Assembly (NCBI GenBank): GCA_947164155.1
Contig: CAMUVS010000004.1
Span: 603 to 64,602 of the forward strand
From: an uncultured Bacillales bacterium
Lineage (GTDB): Bacteria; Bacillota_I; Bacilli_A; RFN20; CAG-826
Direction of reading: 5' to 3'
Length of the DNA stretch: 64,000 bases
Shown piece after piece: positions 9,585 to 32,805 of this stretch. Numbering within the stretch: position 1 is the first letter of the stretch; each line of letters begins with the position of its first letter. The notes below the pieces were generated by a model. The model made no database searches. It was not told where the DNA came from and worked only from the letters and a program-made list of their open reading frames with translations. The translations under genes and the position numbers were made by a program.

Positions 9585-10433
9585 TTATTTTTGTTCCCCA
9601 TCATTGAAATACAAAATTCCAATGCACTTTGGACCACAGTGAGAAGAAATAGTTGCTCCTGCTTTAGTTTCAATAATACGTTTAAATCCTCTAGCTTCAC
9701 ATTCTTTTTTGCAGGCTTCTACCATTTCTGGAGTGGCCATAGAGTGAGTGATAAAGACTAAACTCTTATCTGGGTTGTTGAATTGATCTAATGTATCTTT
9801 AGCGTAGCTTTCAACACATCCAAGTTGTTTGCCCATATATTTCTTTCCTGGGCTCATCTTGCCTTGTGCCATAATGATTTGAGGTCTAATTCTAAATAGC
9901 ATTGCGCCTAATTTAGCTAAACCAGAACATCTTCCACCTTTATATAAATAATCAACAGTGGCAAGTACAAAGCTAGTTTGATTATATGGAATTCTCGCTT
10001 CAACTTTCTTAACGATTTCTTCTGGAGATAATCCTTCTTTAGCAAGTTGAGAAGCATAGATTGCTTCTAGAGCAATACCGGTAGATAAGCTTCTAGAATC
10101 TACTACAAAGACATTTTTTAATCCTCTAGCAACGTTTACTGCATTATGGCACGCACTAGAGATTTCACTACTTAAAGCAAAGTGAATAACCGCGTCATAT
10201 TCTTTTAATAAGCCAGTAAAATATTCTTCATATTGTGCTTCGTTAATCGCGCTGGTTTTTGGTAAAACACCAGTTTTATCAACATAATCAAAAATCTCAG
10301 TTGGAGTAATGACTCCATCAAATTTAGGATCAGCACCTAATAAAACAGTAAATGGAATAGTACGAATACCAAATTCATCGAGTTGTTCTTTTTGTAAATC
10401 AATAGTAGATTCAGCAGAGATACAAATCTTCAT
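9585..10433 (-). CDS. DegV family fatty-acid-binding protein
   Basis: Typical DegV sequence begins MKICISAESTIDL... The ATG at 10433 is preceded by AAGGAGAAT. The longer track ORF (to 10508) runs into the tmRNA 3' end and is rejected. Confidence 0.9.
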   Translation of the reverse strand: MKICISAESTIDLQKEQLDEFGIRTIPFTVLLGADPKFDGVITPTEIFDYVDKTGVLPKTSAINEAQYEEYFTGLLKEYDAVIHFALSSEISSACHNAVNVARGLKNVFVVDSRSLSTGIALEAIYASQLAKEGLSPEEIVKKVEARIPYNQTSFVLATVDYLYKGGRCSGLAKLGAMLFRIRPQIIMAQGKMSPGKKYMGKQLGCVESYAKDTLDQFNNPDKSLVFITHSMATPEMVEACKKECEARGFKRIIETKAGATISSHCGPKCIGILYFNDGEQK

Positions 10434-26747: not shown

Positions 26748-28529
26748 TTAGTTGAATTGAGAGTTATAAATCTCAGAGTATAATCCGCCAAGTTTCATTA
26801 ATGAATCATGGTTACCAGTCTCAACGATGTTACCATCTTTCATAACAAAGATGAGATCGGCGTTTTTAATGGTGGATAATCTATGAGCGATAACAAAGCT
26901 GGTTCTACCTTTAGTTAAGGAGTCCATTGCCTTTTGAATTAAGATTTCGGTTCTAGTATCAACGTTACTAGTTGCTTCATCTAGAATTAGCATTGGAGCG
27001 TTTTCAGTCATTGCTCTAGCAATGGTCACTAATTGTTTTTGTCCAGCAGATAACGCACTTTCCTTTTGAATGACAGTGTCAATTCCTTGTGGGAGAGTAC
27101 TCACAAAGTGTGATAAGTTAGTTTCTTCTAAGATTTCATTAAGTCTATTTTCATCAACATTTTTGAGGTTATAGACAATGTTTTCTCTTAATGTACCATT
27201 AATGACCCAAGTTTCTTGTAAGATCATGCCGAAGATATCACGGAGCTCAGCTCTAGTCATATCTTTAATAGACACGCCATCTACTAAGATGTCACCACTA
27301 GTGAGTTCATAGAATCTCATTAATAAGTTCACTAAAGTAGTTTTACCAGCACCAGTAGGACCAATAATCGCGACTTTCATACCTGGCTTAATCTTGCCAG
27401 AGAAGTGTTTAATGGTGAGTTTATTTGGATCATAACCAAAGCACACATCTTTAAATTCCACTTCTCCTCTAATTTTAGAGTGATCAAGTAAGAATTCTTT
27501 TTGTTCTTCAACAGGTAATTCTTCTTTTTCAAGGAAGTCAAAGACACGGTTACAAGCAGCAGTACCAAGTTGAATAGTAGAGCTAGCTTGACCAATTTGA
27601 GCGAGTGGTTCTTGGAATAAAGAAACATAAACGATAAAGCCAGTGATAATACCCATATCGAATTTGGCTGGATCGCTAGCGATTAATAAGCCCGCAGTAA
27701 TTAAGACTGCCGCATAAGTTAAGTAAGAAACAAATTGCATTGCAGGTTCAATTAATCCACCCCAAGCTTGGGATTTATATAAAATAGAACCAAGTAAATC
27801 GTTTTTCTTCTTAAATTCAGCAATCTTAAGTTTTTCAGCATTAAAGGCTTTAATAACGAGTTGACCGGAATAGTTTTCTTCAACAGTTGCGTTAACTTCA
27901 CCAAGTACTTTTTGGTTCTCATTAAATAATGGTAATGCTTTCTTAAATGTTAATAAGATAATAATTAACATAATTGGTAATGAACATAAGACAACAATTG
28001 CCATTTGCCAGCTTGCGATAAACATCGCAATAATAACACCGACTAACATTACTACTGAGTTAACGAGTAACGAAATAGAGTTTTGTAATGAGGTTGATAA
28101 AGTATCAACATCGTTAGTGATAACAGATAAGATATCACCAAATTGAGTGGTATCGAAATAATTTAAAGGCATCTTGTTGATTTTCGCGGAGATGTCTCTT
28201 CTTAAATCTTTTGAGAATTTTTGAATAATGGTGTTAAGAATAAATCCAGAGGCAAAGCCAGTGATAAAGGAAACACCAACATAAACCACTAATTTAATAG
28301 CGAGCTTAAGTATAAGGTCTAAATCAAGTACAACAACCCCACCAACAACCTTACCCATTGGGTTAATGGCGTTAGTTAATTCTCTAATTGTTCCTGGAGT
28401 AAGAATTGTAAGAACAACAGAGGCGATAAGTAAGGCAATAGAGATAGCAAAAGGAATATAGTATTTGCGGAAGGCTTTAACTAGGCTACCTAATTTATTA
28501 GAGCTCATTTTTTTCTTCATTTTACTCAT
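26748..28529 (-). CDS. ABC transporter permease/ATP-binding protein (exporter half-transporter)
   Basis: 593 aa. Six-TM domain plus NBD (GPTGAGKTT, LSAGQKQ, LILDEATS). No N-terminal C39 peptidase domain. Confidence 0.9.
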   Translation of the reverse strand: MSKMKKKMSSNKLGSLVKAFRKYYIPFAISIALLIASVVLTILTPGTIRELTNAINPMGKVVGGVVVLDLDLILKLAIKLVVYVGVSFITGFASGFILNTIIQKFSKDLRRDISAKINKMPLNYFDTTQFGDILSVITNDVDTLSTSLQNSISLLVNSVVMLVGVIIAMFIASWQMAIVVLCSLPIMLIIILLTFKKALPLFNENQKVLGEVNATVEENYSGQLVIKAFNAEKLKIAEFKKKNDLLGSILYKSQAWGGLIEPAMQFVSYLTYAAVLITAGLLIASDPAKFDMGIITGFIVYVSLFQEPLAQIGQASSTIQLGTAACNRVFDFLEKEELPVEEQKEFLLDHSKIRGEVEFKDVCFGYDPNKLTIKHFSGKIKPGMKVAIIGPTGAGKTTLVNLLMRFYELTSGDILVDGVSIKDMTRAELRDIFGMILQETWVINGTLRENIVYNLKNVDENRLNEILEETNLSHFVSTLPQGIDTVIQKESALSAGQKQLVTIARAMTENAPMLILDEATSNVDTRTEILIQKAMDSLTKGRTSFVIAHRLSTIKNADLIFVMKDGNIVETGNHDSLMKLGGLYSEIYNSQFN

Positions 28530-30283
28530 AATCCTAATTCCTCCTTACTTAATTGAGATAAGGCAATTTCTTGATAGACTGGGCAATTTCTTACTAAGTC
28601 TTTGTGTTTGCCTAAGCCTACAATCTTACCATGGTCTAATACCACGATTTGATCAGCATCCATAATGGTGCCAACACGTTGAGCAATAATGACTCTAGTG
28701 GCTTCTGGAAGTTTTTCGGCAATTCTTCCTCTAACAACTTTATCAGTACGATAGTCTAGAGCAGAGAAAGAGTCATCAAAGATTAAGATTTCTGGTTTAG
28801 GAGCAATCGCTCTAGCGATACAAAGTCTTTGTTTTTGTCCGCCTGAGAAGTTAGTGCCGCCTTGAGCAACTTCAGAATCATAACCATTACTTTTATTCAT
28901 CACAAAGCCATCAGCGTCAGCGATTTCCGCTGCCCATCTGATATCTTTTAAAGTCATACTAGGATTTTTTAAGGCGATATTTTCTTTAATATTACCTTTA
29001 AATAAGAATCCTCTTTGAGGAGCATAGCCAATACGGTCTCTTAAATCGGATTGTAAAACGTCTTTAACATTTACTCCGTCCACTAAAACTTCTCCGCTTG
29101 TGCAGTCTGCCATACGTGGAATTAAATTAATAATTGTGGTTTTACCACTTCCGGTCGCGCCAATAAAGGCAATTGTTTCGCCTTTATTCACTTTGAAGGA
29201 AATATTCGAAACAGCTTCTTTATCACTACCAGGATAAGCAAAGCCGACATTTTTAAATTCAATTGTACCTTTTTCTTTGAATTCCACTGGATGATCAGTA
29301 TCTAAAACAGAAACTGAGTGAGTGATAACTTCATGAATACGTTTCGCACTGACAGAGGCTCTTGGCCAAATAACAATTAAGGTAATCACTAAAATGAATG
29401 ACATAACGATTTGGCTAGCAAGCATGACGAATGAGTTAGTAGAGTTAAAGGCATTTGTAGCCTCAGTAGCACTTAATCCGTTAATAATATAAGCACTAAC
29501 CCATAAAATAGATAAAGATAAGCCCATCATAACCATCATCACAAACGGGGTGAAGAAGGCTAATACACGACCAATAAAGATTTGAGTCTTTGTATATGGA
29601 GCATTAACTTTGTCGAATTTGTCTTCTTGATAAGATTCGGCATTGAATGCTCTAACTACTCTAACACCAGTAAGATTTTCTCTACTTGAAACGTTAAGAG
29701 CATCGGTTAATTTTTGTACAATTCTAAATTTAGGGGTTACCATAAATAATAAAACTGCAACAGCGGCAACTAATAAGACCACCCAAACAACAGTAACAAC
29801 TGTAAGTTTTGCGTTAGCTTGAGTTGCGAGTAAAATAACTGACCAAACCATTGTAACAGGGGCCACGAATGCAGTTTTTAAGAATGTTAACCAAGCAAGG
29901 TGAACATTTTGAATGTCGTTTGTGGTTCTTGTAATTAAAGATTCGGTTGAGAATGAGGCAAAATCAGCAATTGCAAATTCGTTAACTCTTTCATATAACT
30001 TTTGTCTTAATTGAGTCACTGTACTACTAGCAGTCGCACTAGCGATGAATTTAATGATGATATCAACAACCACCATCGCTACAGCACATACAATCATTCC
30101 TAATCCGTTTAACCACACATTAGCAGTGCCATCACTAGCAGCATTACCAACAGCCGCGGTTAACAAACCAATATAGGAGACAATTGTCATCATGAAATAG
30201 ACTTGAGCTAAGGTGAGTAAGAAAATAAATACTACTGCAACCCAATGTCTTGCCTTCATGTTTTTGAAAAGTAATTTAAACAT
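28526..30283 (-). CDS. ABC transporter permease/ATP-binding protein (heterodimer partner)
   Basis: 585 aa. TM domain plus NBD (GATGSGKTT, FSGGQKQ, LIFDDSFS). Overlaps the downstream partner by 4 nt. Confidence 0.9.
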   Translation of the reverse strand: MFKLLFKNMKARHWVAVVFIFLLTLAQVYFMMTIVSYIGLLTAAVGNAASDGTANVWLNGLGMIVCAVAMVVVDIIIKFIASATASSTVTQLRQKLYERVNEFAIADFASFSTESLITRTTNDIQNVHLAWLTFLKTAFVAPVTMVWSVILLATQANAKLTVVTVVWVVLLVAAVAVLLFMVTPKFRIVQKLTDALNVSSRENLTGVRVVRAFNAESYQEDKFDKVNAPYTKTQIFIGRVLAFFTPFVMMVMMGLSLSILWVSAYIINGLSATEATNAFNSTNSFVMLASQIVMSFILVITLIVIWPRASVSAKRIHEVITHSVSVLDTDHPVEFKEKGTIEFKNVGFAYPGSDKEAVSNISFKVNKGETIAFIGATGSGKTTIINLIPRMADCTSGEVLVDGVNVKDVLQSDLRDRIGYAPQRGFLFKGNIKENIALKNPSMTLKDIRWAAEIADADGFVMNKSNGYDSEVAQGGTNFSGGQKQRLCIARAIAPKPEILIFDDSFSALDYRTDKVVRGRIAEKLPEATRVIIAQRVGTIMDADQIVVLDHGKIVGLGKHKDLVRNCPVYQEIALSQLSKEELGL

Positions 30284-30439: not shown

Positions 30440-30464
30440 AAAAAGTCGCCCATGCAGACGACTT
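30440..30464 (-). terminator. Rho-independent terminator after small protein 1; member of a 3-copy terminator family
   Basis: Minus strand reads AAGTCGTC-TGCATG-GGCGACTTTTT. It shares the ATTAAGTCGTC... lead-in with the copies at 32766 and 33509. Confidence 0.6.
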
Positions 30465-30504
30465 AATGTTACAGAAATCCAATTATTGATTATGCTTTTT
30501 TTAA

Positions 30505-30813
30505 TTATAAATCTGCGTTTTTGGAACCTTTCCAAGTATACCCACATTCACACACAAATTCATAGATAAGGCCATAATATGATTTTCGACCAACATAGCG
30601 ACCTTCCACTAATCTACCACATTTTTTACATGTTTTTGAAAGATCAGGTGCGTTAGTGGATAAACAACCACCACCATTGACTGCTTCTAATTGTTCATCA
30701 GTTAAAGTAAATCCTTCTTCTTTAGCTAAAGCGAGCAATTCATCTGTATTTTTGCAGGCACTAACTTTTTTAATTTGTTCTTCTGTTAAACCTTTTAATA
30801 ATTCTTTTTTCAT
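30505..30813 (-). CDS. Small protein: Nif11-like double-glycine leader fused to a Cys-rich zinc-ribbon-like C-terminal module
   Basis: 102 aa with RBS AAAGGAGAA. N-terminus is MKKELLKGLTEEQIKKVSACKNTDELLALAKEEGFTLTDEQLEAVNGGG. It is followed by C...CKKC...CEC. Confidence 0.6.
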   Translation of the reverse strand: MKKELLKGLTEEQIKKVSACKNTDELLALAKEEGFTLTDEQLEAVNGGGCLSTNAPDLSKTCKKCGRLVEGRYVGRKSYYGLIYEFVCECGYTWKGSKNADL

Positions 30814-30854
30814 ATTCGAGTTTCTCCTTTGTTATTTATATGTTATCAAAATAC

Positions 30855-30873
30855 TTGTCACAAATGTGCCACA
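30855..30873 (-). promoter_or_regulatory. Conserved 19-nt box TGTGGCACATTTGTGACAA (minus strand) upstream of small protein 1
   Basis: 18 of 19 nt identical to 31977-31995. Contains a TGTG-N-CACA palindrome and a TTGTGA/GTGACA -35-like element 15-17 nt from TATAAA. Confidence 0.5.
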
Positions 30874-31575
30874 TTATTCAATTAATTGAGGTAACCATTT
30901 ATTAATCTCTTCAATTATGTATTCTTTATTGTGGTTATATTGTGCTTGTAAAGGAAGTAATAACGATCCTTCAAACTCTTTATTTACTTCAATATGAGAT
31001 TGTAGATCAATAAGAGGCAACTTTAACTTCTTTTTAATATTGTTTTTATATGTAAGTAACAAATCTAAATATTTTTTTATATCGTCTTTGCTAATAGAAC
31101 ATCCATCTAACTGAGAAAAGGAGTATAAATCTACAAGATGTTTATATAATGGGGTCTCAATAGAAAACATCGCTATTATTTTCTCGGCAATTTGAAGTTC
31201 AACGCTGACCCCACTAAAGGTAAATTGTCCGATTTGATAAACACTTCTTTTAAACTTCTTAAAAATATCAAATCTTCTTCCTTCAATATGTATAACCTCG
31301 TTATTAATTCTTACAAAACAAGAAAATGATTCTTCAGTAGCCTCATTAGTTAAAGGAAAATATAAGAATCGAACGACATCAAATTCTTTTTTAAATAGTT
31401 CTTCTAACTTATGAAAATCAGTATCACAAATCAGATCAATATCAGATGTTCTTCTAGCGTGATTAGCTAATACTGCGTTACAAATAAGCCCACCAATAAT
31501 AAGGAAATCAAAATCTAAATTATTTAACTTATTAAGGGCTATTTCTAAATTGTTACTAATATTTCTATTATTCAT
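30874..31575 (-). CDS. AbiEii/DUF1814-like nucleotidyltransferase-fold protein
   Basis: 233 aa. IIGGLICNAVLANHARRTSDIDLICD matches the GG...R.S.DID motif of AbiEii-type / pol-beta-fold NTases. A TATAAT hexamer lies 7 nt upstream of the ATG and there is no SD. Confidence 0.5.
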   Translation of the reverse strand: MNNRNISNNLEIALNKLNNLDFDFLIIGGLICNAVLANHARRTSDIDLICDTDFHKLEELFKKEFDVVRFLYFPLTNEATEESFSCFVRINNEVIHIEGRRFDIFKKFKRSVYQIGQFTFSGVSVELQIAEKIIAMFSIETPLYKHLVDLYSFSQLDGCSISKDDIKKYLDLLLTYKNNIKKKLKLPLIDLQSHIEVNKEFEGSLLLPLQAQYNHNKEYIIEEINKWLPQLIE

Positions 31576-31618
31576 TAGGAGTATTATAGCAGTCTTTAAT
31601 TCCGTTAGTGGGCATATT

Positions 31619-31641
31619 AAAAAACCGAGATAAGCTCGGTT
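31619..31641 (-). terminator. Rho-independent terminator after small protein 2
   Basis: Minus strand reads AACCGAGC-TTAT-CTCGGTTTTTT. Confidence 0.65.
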
Positions 31642-31653
31642 ATACTCGTTTGT

Positions 31654-31938
31654 TTAATCGTAATTTTCGATTTTGTAGCCACAGCTTTGGCAGATAAAAT
31701 AGGTGCCTTTATCTTTTAAGTTGTTGCTACCACACCTTGGACAGTCGCTTGGATTGATATAGTCTCCAAAATCTGAAATAACAGTACAAGCGCCACCACC
31801 ACTAACAACGGCTAATTGTTCTTCGGTTAATGAAACGCCTTCTTTTTTAGCGAGTTCCATTAATTCTTCGTGATTTTTACATGATTTAACTTTAGCAATT
31901 TGTTCTTTAGTTAATCCTTTTAATAATTCTTTTTTCAT
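31654..31938 (-). CDS. Small protein: Nif11-like double-glycine leader fused to a zinc-ribbon module (paralogue of 30505..30813)
   Basis: 94 aa from the ATG at 31938 (RBS GGGGGG). N-terminus is MKKELLKGLTKEQIAKVKSCKNHEELMELAKKEGVSLTEEQLAVVSGGG. It is followed by C...CPRC...CQSC. The track ORF start at 31983 has no RBS. Confidence 0.6.
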   Translation of the reverse strand: MKKELLKGLTKEQIAKVKSCKNHEELMELAKKEGVSLTEEQLAVVSGGGACTVISDFGDYINPSDCPRCGSNNLKDKGTYFICQSCGYKIENYD

Positions 31939-31976
31939 AATTGCCCCCCAGGATTGAGTATATTTTATCATGTAGT

Positions 31977-31995
31977 TTGTCACAAATGTGTCACA
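31977..31995 (-). promoter_or_regulatory. Conserved 19-nt box TGTGACACATTTGTGACAA (minus strand) upstream of small protein 2
   Basis: Second copy of the box at 30855-30873. TATACT lies 15-17 nt downstream of the GTGACA/TTGTGA element. Confidence 0.5.
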
Positions 31996-32023
31996 AATAA
32001 GCCGTTACTAAGGACAGCTTAAA

Positions 32024-32695
32024 TTAGATATTAAATACATCTCCAGGAGATACGATTCCTAATACAGGTTCATTTCTTAAACCGTGTTCAGTAATAAATA
32101 TTAAAGCGCATCTTTTGTGTTCTTTGTTATAGCCGATAAAATATTGTTTAGCATCAAACGCAAAGGTGTCTTTTGCTAAGAAAAGGTAATATAGATCTTT
32201 GCTTTTATTAATATCAAATTTATCTTTTAAATCTTCAATAGTGTATGATCTATTTTCGTCATATTCTGCGTTTGCAAGAATTGAGAATATTGTGCGCATA
32301 GAAACAACATATCTAACACACCCTTTCTCATCAAAGATTGGGATATTAGTGATATGTAACTGATCCATATAGCGCATCGCGTGTAATACATCAGTGTCAG
32401 GAGATAATGTTTTAATTTTATCTTTTTTAATCCCAACATCGTAGGCTTTTACCACTAATTTATTTATTATTTCTTCTAGTGTTTCTAAAACATAATCAGC
32501 GACATGAAAAGGAAAATCGCCATTGACTTTTGGAGTATGTGTCAAGCAGTTACGGATATGTCTTAAGGCATTGAATTCGACATAATTCTGTTTTTTTATC
32601 ATCTCAAATCGATGAGGATCATTTTCTTCGATATATTCAAAAGTCTTATACTCATCTAAAAATTTTTGCGTTATTTCTGCATTATATGTAGCCAT
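32024..32695 (-). CDS. HEPN-like (Rx4H) N-terminal domain fused to a CBS-pair-like C-terminal region
   Basis: 223 aa. LRHIRNCLTH (R-x4-H) sits in a helical N-terminal region of about 80 aa. The C-terminus has two CBS-like segments (DTDVLHAMRYMDQLHITNIPIFDEKGCVRYVVSMRTIF; ...ALIFITEHGLRNEPVLGIVSPGDV). Confidence 0.5.
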   Translation of the reverse strand: MATYNAEITQKFLDEYKTFEYIEENDPHRFEMIKKQNYVEFNALRHIRNCLTHTPKVNGDFPFHVADYVLETLEEIINKLVVKAYDVGIKKDKIKTLSPDTDVLHAMRYMDQLHITNIPIFDEKGCVRYVVSMRTIFSILANAEYDENRSYTIEDLKDKFDINKSKDLYYLFLAKDTFAFDAKQYFIGYNKEHKRCALIFITEHGLRNEPVLGIVSPGDVFNI

Positions 32696-32765: not shown

Positions 32766-32805
32766 AAAAAAGCCGCACTATGGACGACTTAATTTGATTG
32801 TTTGA
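32766..32805 (-). repeat. Orphan copy of the rpsR terminator (about 40-nt direct repeat of 33509-33549)
   Basis: AAAAAAGCCGCACTATGGACGACTTAATTTGATTGTTTGA versus AAAAAAGCCGCCACTATGGACGACTTAATTTGATTATTTGA. The minus-strand hairpin uses G:U pairs and is followed by a T-tract. No minus-strand gene ends upstream of it. Confidence 0.7.

Follow-up and report, generated by a model that had tools for sequence, protein, structure and literature searches.

A Nif11-like leader/zinc-ribbon gene family and its DUF1814 nucleotidyltransferase partner at a locus of an uncultured Bacillales bacterium

Contig CAMUVS010000004.1 of an uncultured Bacillales bacterium (assembly GCA_947164155.1) carries four neighbouring minus-strand genes in the 64,000-nucleotide stretch analysed here (positions 603 to 64,602 of the contig, hereafter the window). 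The window has a G+C content of 33%, and its nearest relatives are rumen metagenome-assembled genomes (MAGs) labelled Bacillales UBA3835 and UBA2450. In order of transcription, the genes encode a 223-residue protein with a pair of CBS domains, small protein 1, a 233-residue nucleotidyltransferase (NTase) and small protein 2. A 19-nt box precedes each small gene and a terminator hairpin follows it (Table 1). A reading of the sequence alone had described this arrangement, including the LRHIRNCLTH motif of the CBS protein and the GG...RRTSDIDLICD motif of the NTase, and we confirmed all of it within positions 30443-32695. That reading had taken the four genes for two equivalent units of a single HEPN/NTase conflict module. 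Here we describe the family to which the small proteins belong, the pairing of one of its branches with the NTase, and the standing of the CBS protein.

Table 1 Features of the window and of related loci (positions without an L-number refer to the window)
Feature	Position	Strand	Description
CBS protein gene	32024..32695	(-)	223-residue open reading frame containing LRHIRNCLTH
Box 1	31977..31995	(-)	19 nt; two TGTGACA heptads 11 bp apart (TGTGACACATTTGTGACAA)
Small protein 1 gene	31654..31938	(-)	94 residues counted from MKKELL
Small protein 1 leader	31795-31938	(-)	48 residues, Nif11-like, C-terminal SGG
Intrinsic terminator of small gene 1	31623..31641	(-)	hairpin 3' of the gene
NTase gene	30874..31575	(-)	233-residue open reading frame containing IIGG...RRTSDIDLICD
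Box 2	30855..30873	(-)	TGTGGCACATTTGTGACAA; begins immediately past the NTase stop codon
Small protein 2 gene	30505..30813	(-)	102-residue open reading frame
Small protein 2 leader	30670-30813	(-)	48 residues, Nif11-like, C-terminal NGG
Intrinsic terminator of small gene 2	30443..30464	(-)	hairpin 3' of the gene
HipA_C-like/radical SAM/HlyD cluster next to arrays	L033 8440-16192; L057 16637-20270		
Phd/YefM and TfoX_N-GNAT gene pairs	L016 9649-10730; L074 3256-4337; L075 7458-8539; L083 949-2030		
Hybrid histidine kinase	L028 13749-17551; L053 3164-7077; L071 11190-13736; L075 15885-19717; L069 2797-4854		

The two small proteins have 34 of 49 N-terminal residues in common (69% identity, E = 1e-21), and GGG closes both leaders, which bears out the shared N-terminus of about 48 residues noticed earlier. 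A database search with the 102-residue protein returned 492 clusters (at 90% identity), nearly all of them 86-105 residues long and aligned over about 92% of the query. Informative names were lacking throughout: one JGI record was labelled 'transposase-like protein', one NCBI member 'hypothetical protein'. Scanning a single genome for each species produced 281 confirmed matches. The best 80, which we examined, were all in MAGs from rumen or gut assigned to Erysipelotrichaceae, 'Bacilli' and Lachnospiraceae, and a MAG often had them on several of its contigs. No relatives of the small proteins were found in viral contigs, and none of the small proteins or the NTase in plasmids. In the window itself, tblastn detected no leader copies besides these two. 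Across 86 sequences (85 fetched loci, numbered with the prefix L, and the window), a hidden Markov model (HMM) of the leader detected 249 family genes, with up to 13 in a 20-kb stretch. The majority of family members lie in arrays without an adjoining enzyme.

We compared leaders and cores in 227 of the 231 unique family proteins, namely those with a recognizable GG motif. The leader is exactly 48 residues long and ends in h[STNA]GG in 225 of them, and the same number have a cysteine near leader position 20. A further cysteine stands among the first four core residues in 221 proteins, and 218 cores contain CxxC...CxxC. Mean pairwise identity is 70% for the leader and 31% for the core. In alignable orthologue pairs, the ratio of nonsynonymous to synonymous substitution (dN/dS) was about 0.16 for the leader and about 0.17 for the core, and no positive selection on cores was detected in these pairs. 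The cores are therefore constrained proteins, whose diversity lies between old paralogue lineages.

By its sequence, the leader is Nif11-like with a double-glycine end, as had been proposed. Nif11/TIGR03798 was the best-scoring family in 16 of 22 members, with every match under the cut-off: against TIGR03798 (cut-off 32.3 bits), small protein 2 scored 24.7 and small protein 1 scored 13.4 bits, and against PF07862 (cut-off 23.8 bits) the two small proteins scored 23.2 and 21.2. The zinc-ribbon character of the cargo, likewise suggested earlier, is supported by the cysteine pattern together with matches to many zinc-ribbon Pfam and NCBIfam models at 1e-5 to 1e-7, under their cut-offs. Small protein 1 has a core of 46 residues with a predicted CPRCG...CQSCG zinc ribbon and belongs to a widespread 'ACxVxSDxGDYINPxDC' subfamily. 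In small protein 2, the core has 54 residues and the predicted ribbon reads CKKCG...CECG, that is CKKC...CEC rather than CxxC...CxxC.

The regions upstream of the two small genes align over TGTGRCACATTTGTGACAA, followed by a conserved TGATAA-N-ATATA. The box occurs at these two places in the window and at no others. Two copies alone are not significant, given that at least two matches at two mismatches appeared in 21 of 100 shuffles of the window. In 1.19 Mb of related loci, the pattern TGTGRCA-N4-TRTGRCA was found 113 times, and 97 of these matches sit 40-46 nt 5' of a family ATG. Because of this fixed distance before family start codons, we regard the box as a real element and, from its sequence context, as a promoter or operator element of the small-protein family. 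A TG-extended -10 (TGATAAAAT) lies 9 nt 3' of box 1. Anchored on the family, the consensus begins with a T-rich tract, TGTGgCAC(a/t)TtTGTGACAa and six variable nucleotides, and continues with TGaTAAnAT (the TG-extended -10) and AAAGGAGAAC-N6-ATG, which includes a conserved Shine-Dalgarno region. The heptads are spaced one helical turn apart over the -35/spacer region, suggesting a site for a putative dedicated transcription factor. We rejected a sigma-54 promoter, brought to mind by TGGCAC in box 2: there is no GC at -12, and box 1 reads GA in place of GG.

Other signals lie around these genes. An arm, AAGTCGTC...GGCTT/CGACTT, is common to the hairpins at 32770-32790 and 30443-30464, with a weaker copy between the CBS gene and box 1 (about 31998-32024). 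The common arm suggests that the terminator was duplicated together with the units. In front of the NTase gene (31576-31600), the sole good -10 (TATAAT) ends 7 nt before the ATG and there is no Shine-Dalgarno sequence; the mRNA from which the enzyme is translated may be leaderless.

The NTase scored 25.3 bits against Pfam PF08843, over the gathering score of 22.5, and matched PADLOC AbiEii models at 1e-5. On these matches and its motifs I-III, it is a divergent nucleotidyltransferase of the DUF1814/AbiEii superfamily, the type first assigned to it. The DUF1814 motifs I-IV have been defined as hG[GS]-x15-DhD with an Arg, the Lys of KLxA, and +DxxD (Dy et al. 2014, PMC3985639). In an alignment of 19 diverse members, with identity down to 33%, the invariant positions include (I27-)G28-G29, followed after 15 residues by D45-I-D47, with R41 at D45-4 (motifs I and II), and K132 in EKIIA (motif III). 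Motif IV is a variant, K145-H146-L-V-D149 (KHxxD), in which a His replaces the first Asp of +DxxD; it is invariant in the subfamily. Judged by these residues, the NTase is catalytically intact.

We then asked which genes recur around the small genes, counting neighbours over 80 non-redundant loci. The NTase was the sole strongly recurrent neighbour, with 26 members in 22 of these loci. In all 22, a family small gene is the next gene downstream, after a gap of 38-112 nt. The upstream genes differ (Fic, the CBS protein, leader genes and others), and include no COG5340 AbiEi or MenA gene, so that the downstream small gene is the sole conserved neighbour. A scan of metagenome contigs used the NTase alone as seed and was thus unbiased towards the small gene. 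It yielded 30 loci, 24 of them informative (at least 190 nt of downstream sequence), and in 23 of the 24 a leader gene follows the NTase after 50-81 nt. The cores of the partner genes form a subfamily of their own that tracks the NTase clades and includes small protein 2. This subfamily was found exclusively beside NTase genes, NTase remnants or fragments, or contig edges. At three loci (L013, L033 and L041), an NTase pseudogene stands beside an intact small gene.

We conclude that the NTase and its cognate small gene are a conserved, co-diverging and undescribed two-gene module, and we infer that the enzyme is functionally coupled to its cognate precursor. The sequence-only reading had proposed that the small proteins could be partners of the neighbouring enzymes and had asked whether such genes recurrently flank HEPN or NTase genes. 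For the NTase this is what we observed; the CBS protein proved unlinked. No Ser, Thr or Tyr is invariant among the 22 partner cores, and a conserved Tyr considered as a nucleotidylation site was set aside, being Phe in 3 of the 22. Our searches of Pfam, NCBIfam, PADLOC and the literature returned no model or description of the leader/zinc-ribbon family or of the NTase/precursor pair, no paper combining 'Nif11' and 'zinc ribbon', and no account of the small-protein family. Both family and pair are undescribed, as had been surmised for the composition of this locus, though each component is of a known kind.

One NTase locus lacks a detectable partner: in L103 (169-1584), an intact NTase and the box are followed by an IS110-type transposase fragment in the partner's place.

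Neither phmmer nor domain models detected a C39 peptidase or radical SAM gene in the window, and the ABC exporter genes adjoining small gene 2 (26748-30283) encode no peptidase domain, in agreement with the initial reading. We rejected this ABC pair as the exporter on the latter ground and also for its absence from the same position in L008, where the small protein is 96% identical; it is a strain-variable insertion outside the system. The lack of a maturase and a C39 peptidase is true of the window and does not extend to the whole family: L033 has both, and L057 has the same radical SAM gene. L033, from a goat-rumen Bacilli MAG, contains three zinc-ribbon family genes, an NTase remnant, a HipA_C-like protein and a short-core precursor (9709-9900), which combines the family leader and the family box with the core ACSNTSTKERPKFES. 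After this precursor come a radical SAM/SPASM gene, a HlyD-like stub, NHLM_micro_ABC1 (C39 plus ABC, 836 bits) and NHLM_micro_ABC2 (660 bits). In L057, HipA-like, radical SAM and HlyD-like genes adjoin the array with no short-core precursor between them. The HipA_C-like proteins of the two loci have 390-399 residues (E = 0.002-0.007) and the HlyD-like stubs 127-137.

ABC proteins of the NHLM_micro type are the exporters that accompany NHLP and Nif11 leaders. Since the radical SAM genes of L033 and L057 and the C39 exporter of L033 adjoin genes with the same leader, the leader is most probably a genuine handle for export and maturation. The zinc-ribbon proteins are probably substrates acting in trans, by analogy with the prochlorosin precursors served by a single ProcM. 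The Cys just after GG is near-invariant and occurs both in the zinc-ribbon members and in the short-core substrate of the radical SAM enzyme; as a speculation, it is a candidate site for a radical-SAM thioether.

The CBS protein has a different standing. Its C-terminal half matches the Pfam CBS model (5e-9) and PDB profiles including AMPK-gamma and MJ0100, and the full-length model matches CBS pairs in Foldseek with probability 1.00 (E down to 1e-5) and nothing else, so the CBS pair recognized earlier is well supported. The N-terminal 85 residues form four helices in the model (predicted local distance difference test, pLDDT, 86.9), with R48-N49-x3-H53 at the end of helix 3; R48-N49-C-L-T-H53 has the form of the HEPN Rx4-6H motif. 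An exhaustive profile search gave 54 representatives, of which 47, about 200-250 residues long, share the architecture of N-domain plus CBS pair. Across these 47, the R, N and H are the sole invariant residues of the N-domain. The HEPN fold assigned at first did not find such support. No Pfam HEPN family matched the window protein at E <= 1. Foldseek searches with the N-domain, of a small all-helical kind that is hard for the method, gave a best E of 2.2 in the PDB, with no HEPN entry, and of 0.42 in BFVD. Sub-threshold matches to the HEPN clan were obtained for 4 of the 47 relatives (DUF4145 twice, pEK499_p136 and HEPN_Swt1; E = 0.013-0.054), and a PDB sequence profile search gave one weak match, to Cas13b HEPN1 around its RNxxxH (E = 0.009). 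From the invariant RNxxxH and this last match, the protein is possibly a nucleotide-sensing HEPN-like RNase.

Its neighbourhood separates it from the other genes. The CBS protein stands beside the NTase in the window, L009 and L010 only, and L012 has a truncated copy next to an orthologue of small protein 1. It is missing from 19 of the 22 genome loci that have the NTase and, outside these closest relatives, from every one of the 30 metagenome loci. CBS-protein homologues of about 50% identity adjoin amidohydrolase, Rnf or other genes, with neither an NTase nor a leader gene. The genes upstream of near-identical small protein 1 orthologues are unrelated, and L009 is without small protein 1. 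The supposed first unit is therefore a chance adjacency, and the CBS protein is an independent neighbour outside the module. In the sister species locus L001 (4221-5189), the slot of the CBS gene is occupied by a protein with Fic and helix-turn-helix domains that hits PDC-S72, a candidate defence model of PADLOC (E = 6e-119), and the site, next to the rpsF-ssb-rpsR operon, thus behaves like a variable island.

Several other genes accompany the small-gene arrays. Inside some arrays, genes for Phd/YefM antitoxin-like proteins (82 residues) are followed by a gene for a TfoX_N plus GNAT acetyltransferase protein (278 residues), and these pairs look like GNAT-type toxin-antitoxin pairs. At one locus, a COG0523/CobW-family GTPase gene (L085 7157-8509) lies directly downstream of a leader/zinc-ribbon gene and in the same orientation; the COG0523 family includes zinc chaperones. 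A hybrid histidine kinase with two receiver domains is encoded just 3' of the arrays in five loci, followed in three of them (L028, L053 and L075) by a solute-binding protein gene. It could be a sensory input for the small-protein family or conserved synteny. As candidate partners of the family, all of these were too infrequent: the GTPase occurs at one locus, the Phd/GNAT pairs at four to six and the kinase at five.

Taking these observations together, we lean towards a three-part explanation of the region, with two precursor genes, an NTase module and a separate CBS protein. Each small gene would be a self-contained transcription unit encoding a Nif11-type precursor with a folded zinc-ribbon cargo of about 47 residues, and one dedicated regulator binding the heptads would switch on the family copies together. 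An NHLM-type C39-peptidase ABC exporter like that of L033, with its genes at another place in the genome, would recognize the 48-residue leader, perhaps after a radical-SAM/SPASM enzyme has acted on the near-invariant Cys that follows GG. With the leader cut off after Gly48, the zinc-ribbon domain would leave the cell and serve as a signalling or bacteriocin-like peptide. That the small genes encode co-regulated, leader-dependent, exported zinc-ribbon peptides seems to us fairly likely. Where the precursor is paired with the NTase, its unprocessed form would restrain the enzyme. We tentatively favour such a toxin/antidote-like relation because the motifs of AbiEii toxicity are present and because NTase pseudogenes occur next to intact partners. 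Leader-guided nucleotidylation of the peptide is the main alternative for this part, and we consider it somewhat less likely still.

A number of observations weigh against this account. Neither the window nor 78 of the 80 non-redundant loci contain a C39 exporter or maturase, so the case for export of the zinc-ribbon members is drawn from two loci plus leader homology, and that homology itself scores under the curated Nif11 thresholds. Zinc ribbons are usually intracellular folds that bind nucleic acid. The invariant Cys at leader position 20 has no explanation in the export model, and the purifying selection on cores is not the arms-race signal expected for toxins. The box is missing from about half of the NTase-linked small genes, which have a plain -10 or are co-transcribed. 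For the toxin/antidote relation in particular, the gene order is the reverse of that in AbiE/MenAT, and L103 has an intact NTase with an IS element in the place expected for the small gene. The absence of an invariant Ser, Thr or Tyr from the NTase-linked cores tells against tailoring of the peptide.

Four other explanations must be weighed against the three-part one. The idea with which the locus was first read, of a conflict module of two equivalent units with the CBS pair as nucleotide sensor, draws on the adjacency and common orientation of the four genes, the same box before both small genes, the invariant RNxxxH with its weak Cas13b HEPN1 match, the AbiEii-like NTase, and the Fic/PDC-S72 candidate defence gene in the same slot of the sister species. 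It is nonetheless already contradicted by the neighbourhood census, in which the CBS protein and its homologues keep other company and small protein 1 is missing from L009 and has other neighbours in its orthologues. With no significant HEPN match in Pfam or Foldseek, and an NTase that is a DUF1814 enzyme rather than a minimal nucleotidyltransferase (MNT), we consider it very unlikely. Equally remote is a chance adjacency of NTase and small gene, neighbours by shared ancestry without functional coupling. All pairs do come from related rumen Bacilli/Erysipelotrichaceae MAGs and the small gene has its own promoter, but the pair persists while the flanking genes change, stays intact though NTase identity drops to 33%, keeps its gap within 38-112 nt, and has a partner core subfamily exclusive to the NTase.

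The two remaining explanations both keep the pair as a functional unit. In one, it is a purely intracellular toxin-antitoxin (TA) system, in which a MenT/AbiEii-like tRNA-modifying NTase toxin is held by a zinc-ribbon antitoxin. The 'leader' would serve as a helical domain for protein binding, no member of the family would be exported, and the arrays would consist of orphan antitoxin-like genes or anti-toxin decoys. Motifs I-III match those needed for AbiEii toxicity, a Thr at D45-2 in most clades occupies the MenT phospho-acceptor position (PMC11375011), the pair moves as a unit between contexts, and NTase pseudogenes next to an intact small gene (L013, L033 and L041) are the decay order expected of a TA pair. 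However, a short-core peptide with the same leader and box is encoded next to radical SAM and C39 exporter genes, the GG position is fixed in 225 of 227 members, there are dozens of copies per genome without an NTase and Lachnospiraceae arrays without any, and the gene order is opposite to that of AbiE/MenAT. We regard this reading as improbable. In the other, the locus is a minimal cluster for a peptide made by the ribosome and modified post-translationally (RiPP): the NTase would nucleotidylate its cognate precursor before export, guided by the leader, and other copies would be served by other enzymes or none. Nif11-type leaders are described as serving many maturase classes (Haft et al. 2010, as cited in PMC6363468), which suits this proposal. 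Cores of the partners are conserved, and they diverge in step with the NTase, whose catalytic residues are intact. An enzyme beside its precursor is the usual RiPP layout, which the NTase next to the precursor fits. Nevertheless, we know of no DUF1814 enzyme that modifies peptides, the partner cores show no hydroxyl residue at an invariant position (3 of 22 have Phe as the conserved aromatic), and most family members have no NTase. It seems to us unlikely, if less so than a purely intracellular system.

A more far-reaching version of the pairing may also be considered, though we would be surprised to see it borne out: the NTase and its leader/zinc-ribbon partner would be a new two-gene system, a DUF1814 NTase with an exportable partner. 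As an export-labile antidote, the precursor would neutralize the NTase toxin in the cell while being continually drained by the C39 exporter, and a block of expression, such as phage infection, would free the toxin. As a nucleotidylated RiPP, the pair would contain the first pol-beta-fold enzyme to nucleotidylate a ribosomal peptide under the guidance of a Nif11 leader. In either version, rumen Firmicutes would possess, in the family around the pair, a prochlorosin-like library of secreted zinc-ribbon mini-proteins governed as one regulon.

Returning to the three-part explanation, its consequences depend on export. If the small proteins are exported, rumen Bacilli and Lachnospiraceae make large co-regulated sets of secreted zinc-ribbon mini-proteins. 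Zinc ribbons, which are not known as a cargo class of Nif11-type leaders or PCAT exporters, would widen the range of what counts as a leader-dependent natural product, and a defined promoter element would be available for a search for the regulator. The family is wholly unannotated in current databases. The conserved NTase/precursor pair adds a new type of partner to the DUF1814 toxin family and offers a testable link of TA-like enzymes with peptide export or modification. Recognizing the HEPN-NTase pairing as an accident of neighbourhood avoids a false annotation as a defence system.

The locus can finally be set beside four known kinds of system. It resembles HEPN-MNT systems (HepT-MntA, type VII) in having an Rx4H-motif protein near a pol-beta-fold NTase in the window. 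Unlike in those systems, the NTase belongs to DUF1814 rather than to the MNTs, the domain with RNxxxH shares its chain with a CBS pair and found no match among HEPN models or structures, and the CBS and NTase genes co-occur only in the closest relatives. With AbiE and MenAT (PMC3985639; Cai et al. 2020, PMC7450476; PMC11375011), the NTase shares PF08843, hGG-x15-DhD with the family Arg, and the motif III Lys, as well as a tight two-gene module in variable contexts. It differs in its length of only 233 residues and in its motif IV, where KHxxD takes the place of +DxxD. No COG5340/AbiEi or MenA gene precedes it; the conserved partner gene follows it under a promoter of its own and encodes a zinc-ribbon protein with a leader. 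Like the GG-leader regulons of class II bacteriocins (streptococcal blp and com), the family has multiple small GG-leader genes, each with a direct-repeat promoter element, and putative export by a C39-ABC transporter. In contrast to those regulons, the heptads are 11 bp apart rather than at LytTR-type spacing, no pheromone or LytTR regulator was identified, the cargo is a predicted zinc ribbon and immunity genes are not present.

The prochlorosins and LahA, exported by NHLM/PCAT transporters (Haft et al. 2010; Bobeica et al. 2019, PMC6363468), form the fourth comparison. The leader described here differs from theirs in being short (48 residues), under the TIGR03798 and PF07862 cut-offs, and marked by an invariant Cys20, and the cores are predicted folded zinc ribbons of the CPxCG type, about 47 residues long, instead of short Ser/Thr/Cys-rich peptides. 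Copies carry a family-specific promoter box, one subfamily is paired with an NTase, and there is no LanM or cyclodehydratase. In common with prochlorosins and LahA, the family has a Nif11-like helical leader with GG at its end and, in each genome, many precursor genes, dispersed or in tandem, that join a conserved leader to diverse cores. The maturase and the C39-ABC exporter pair are probably likewise encoded once, elsewhere in the genome, to judge from L033 and L057.

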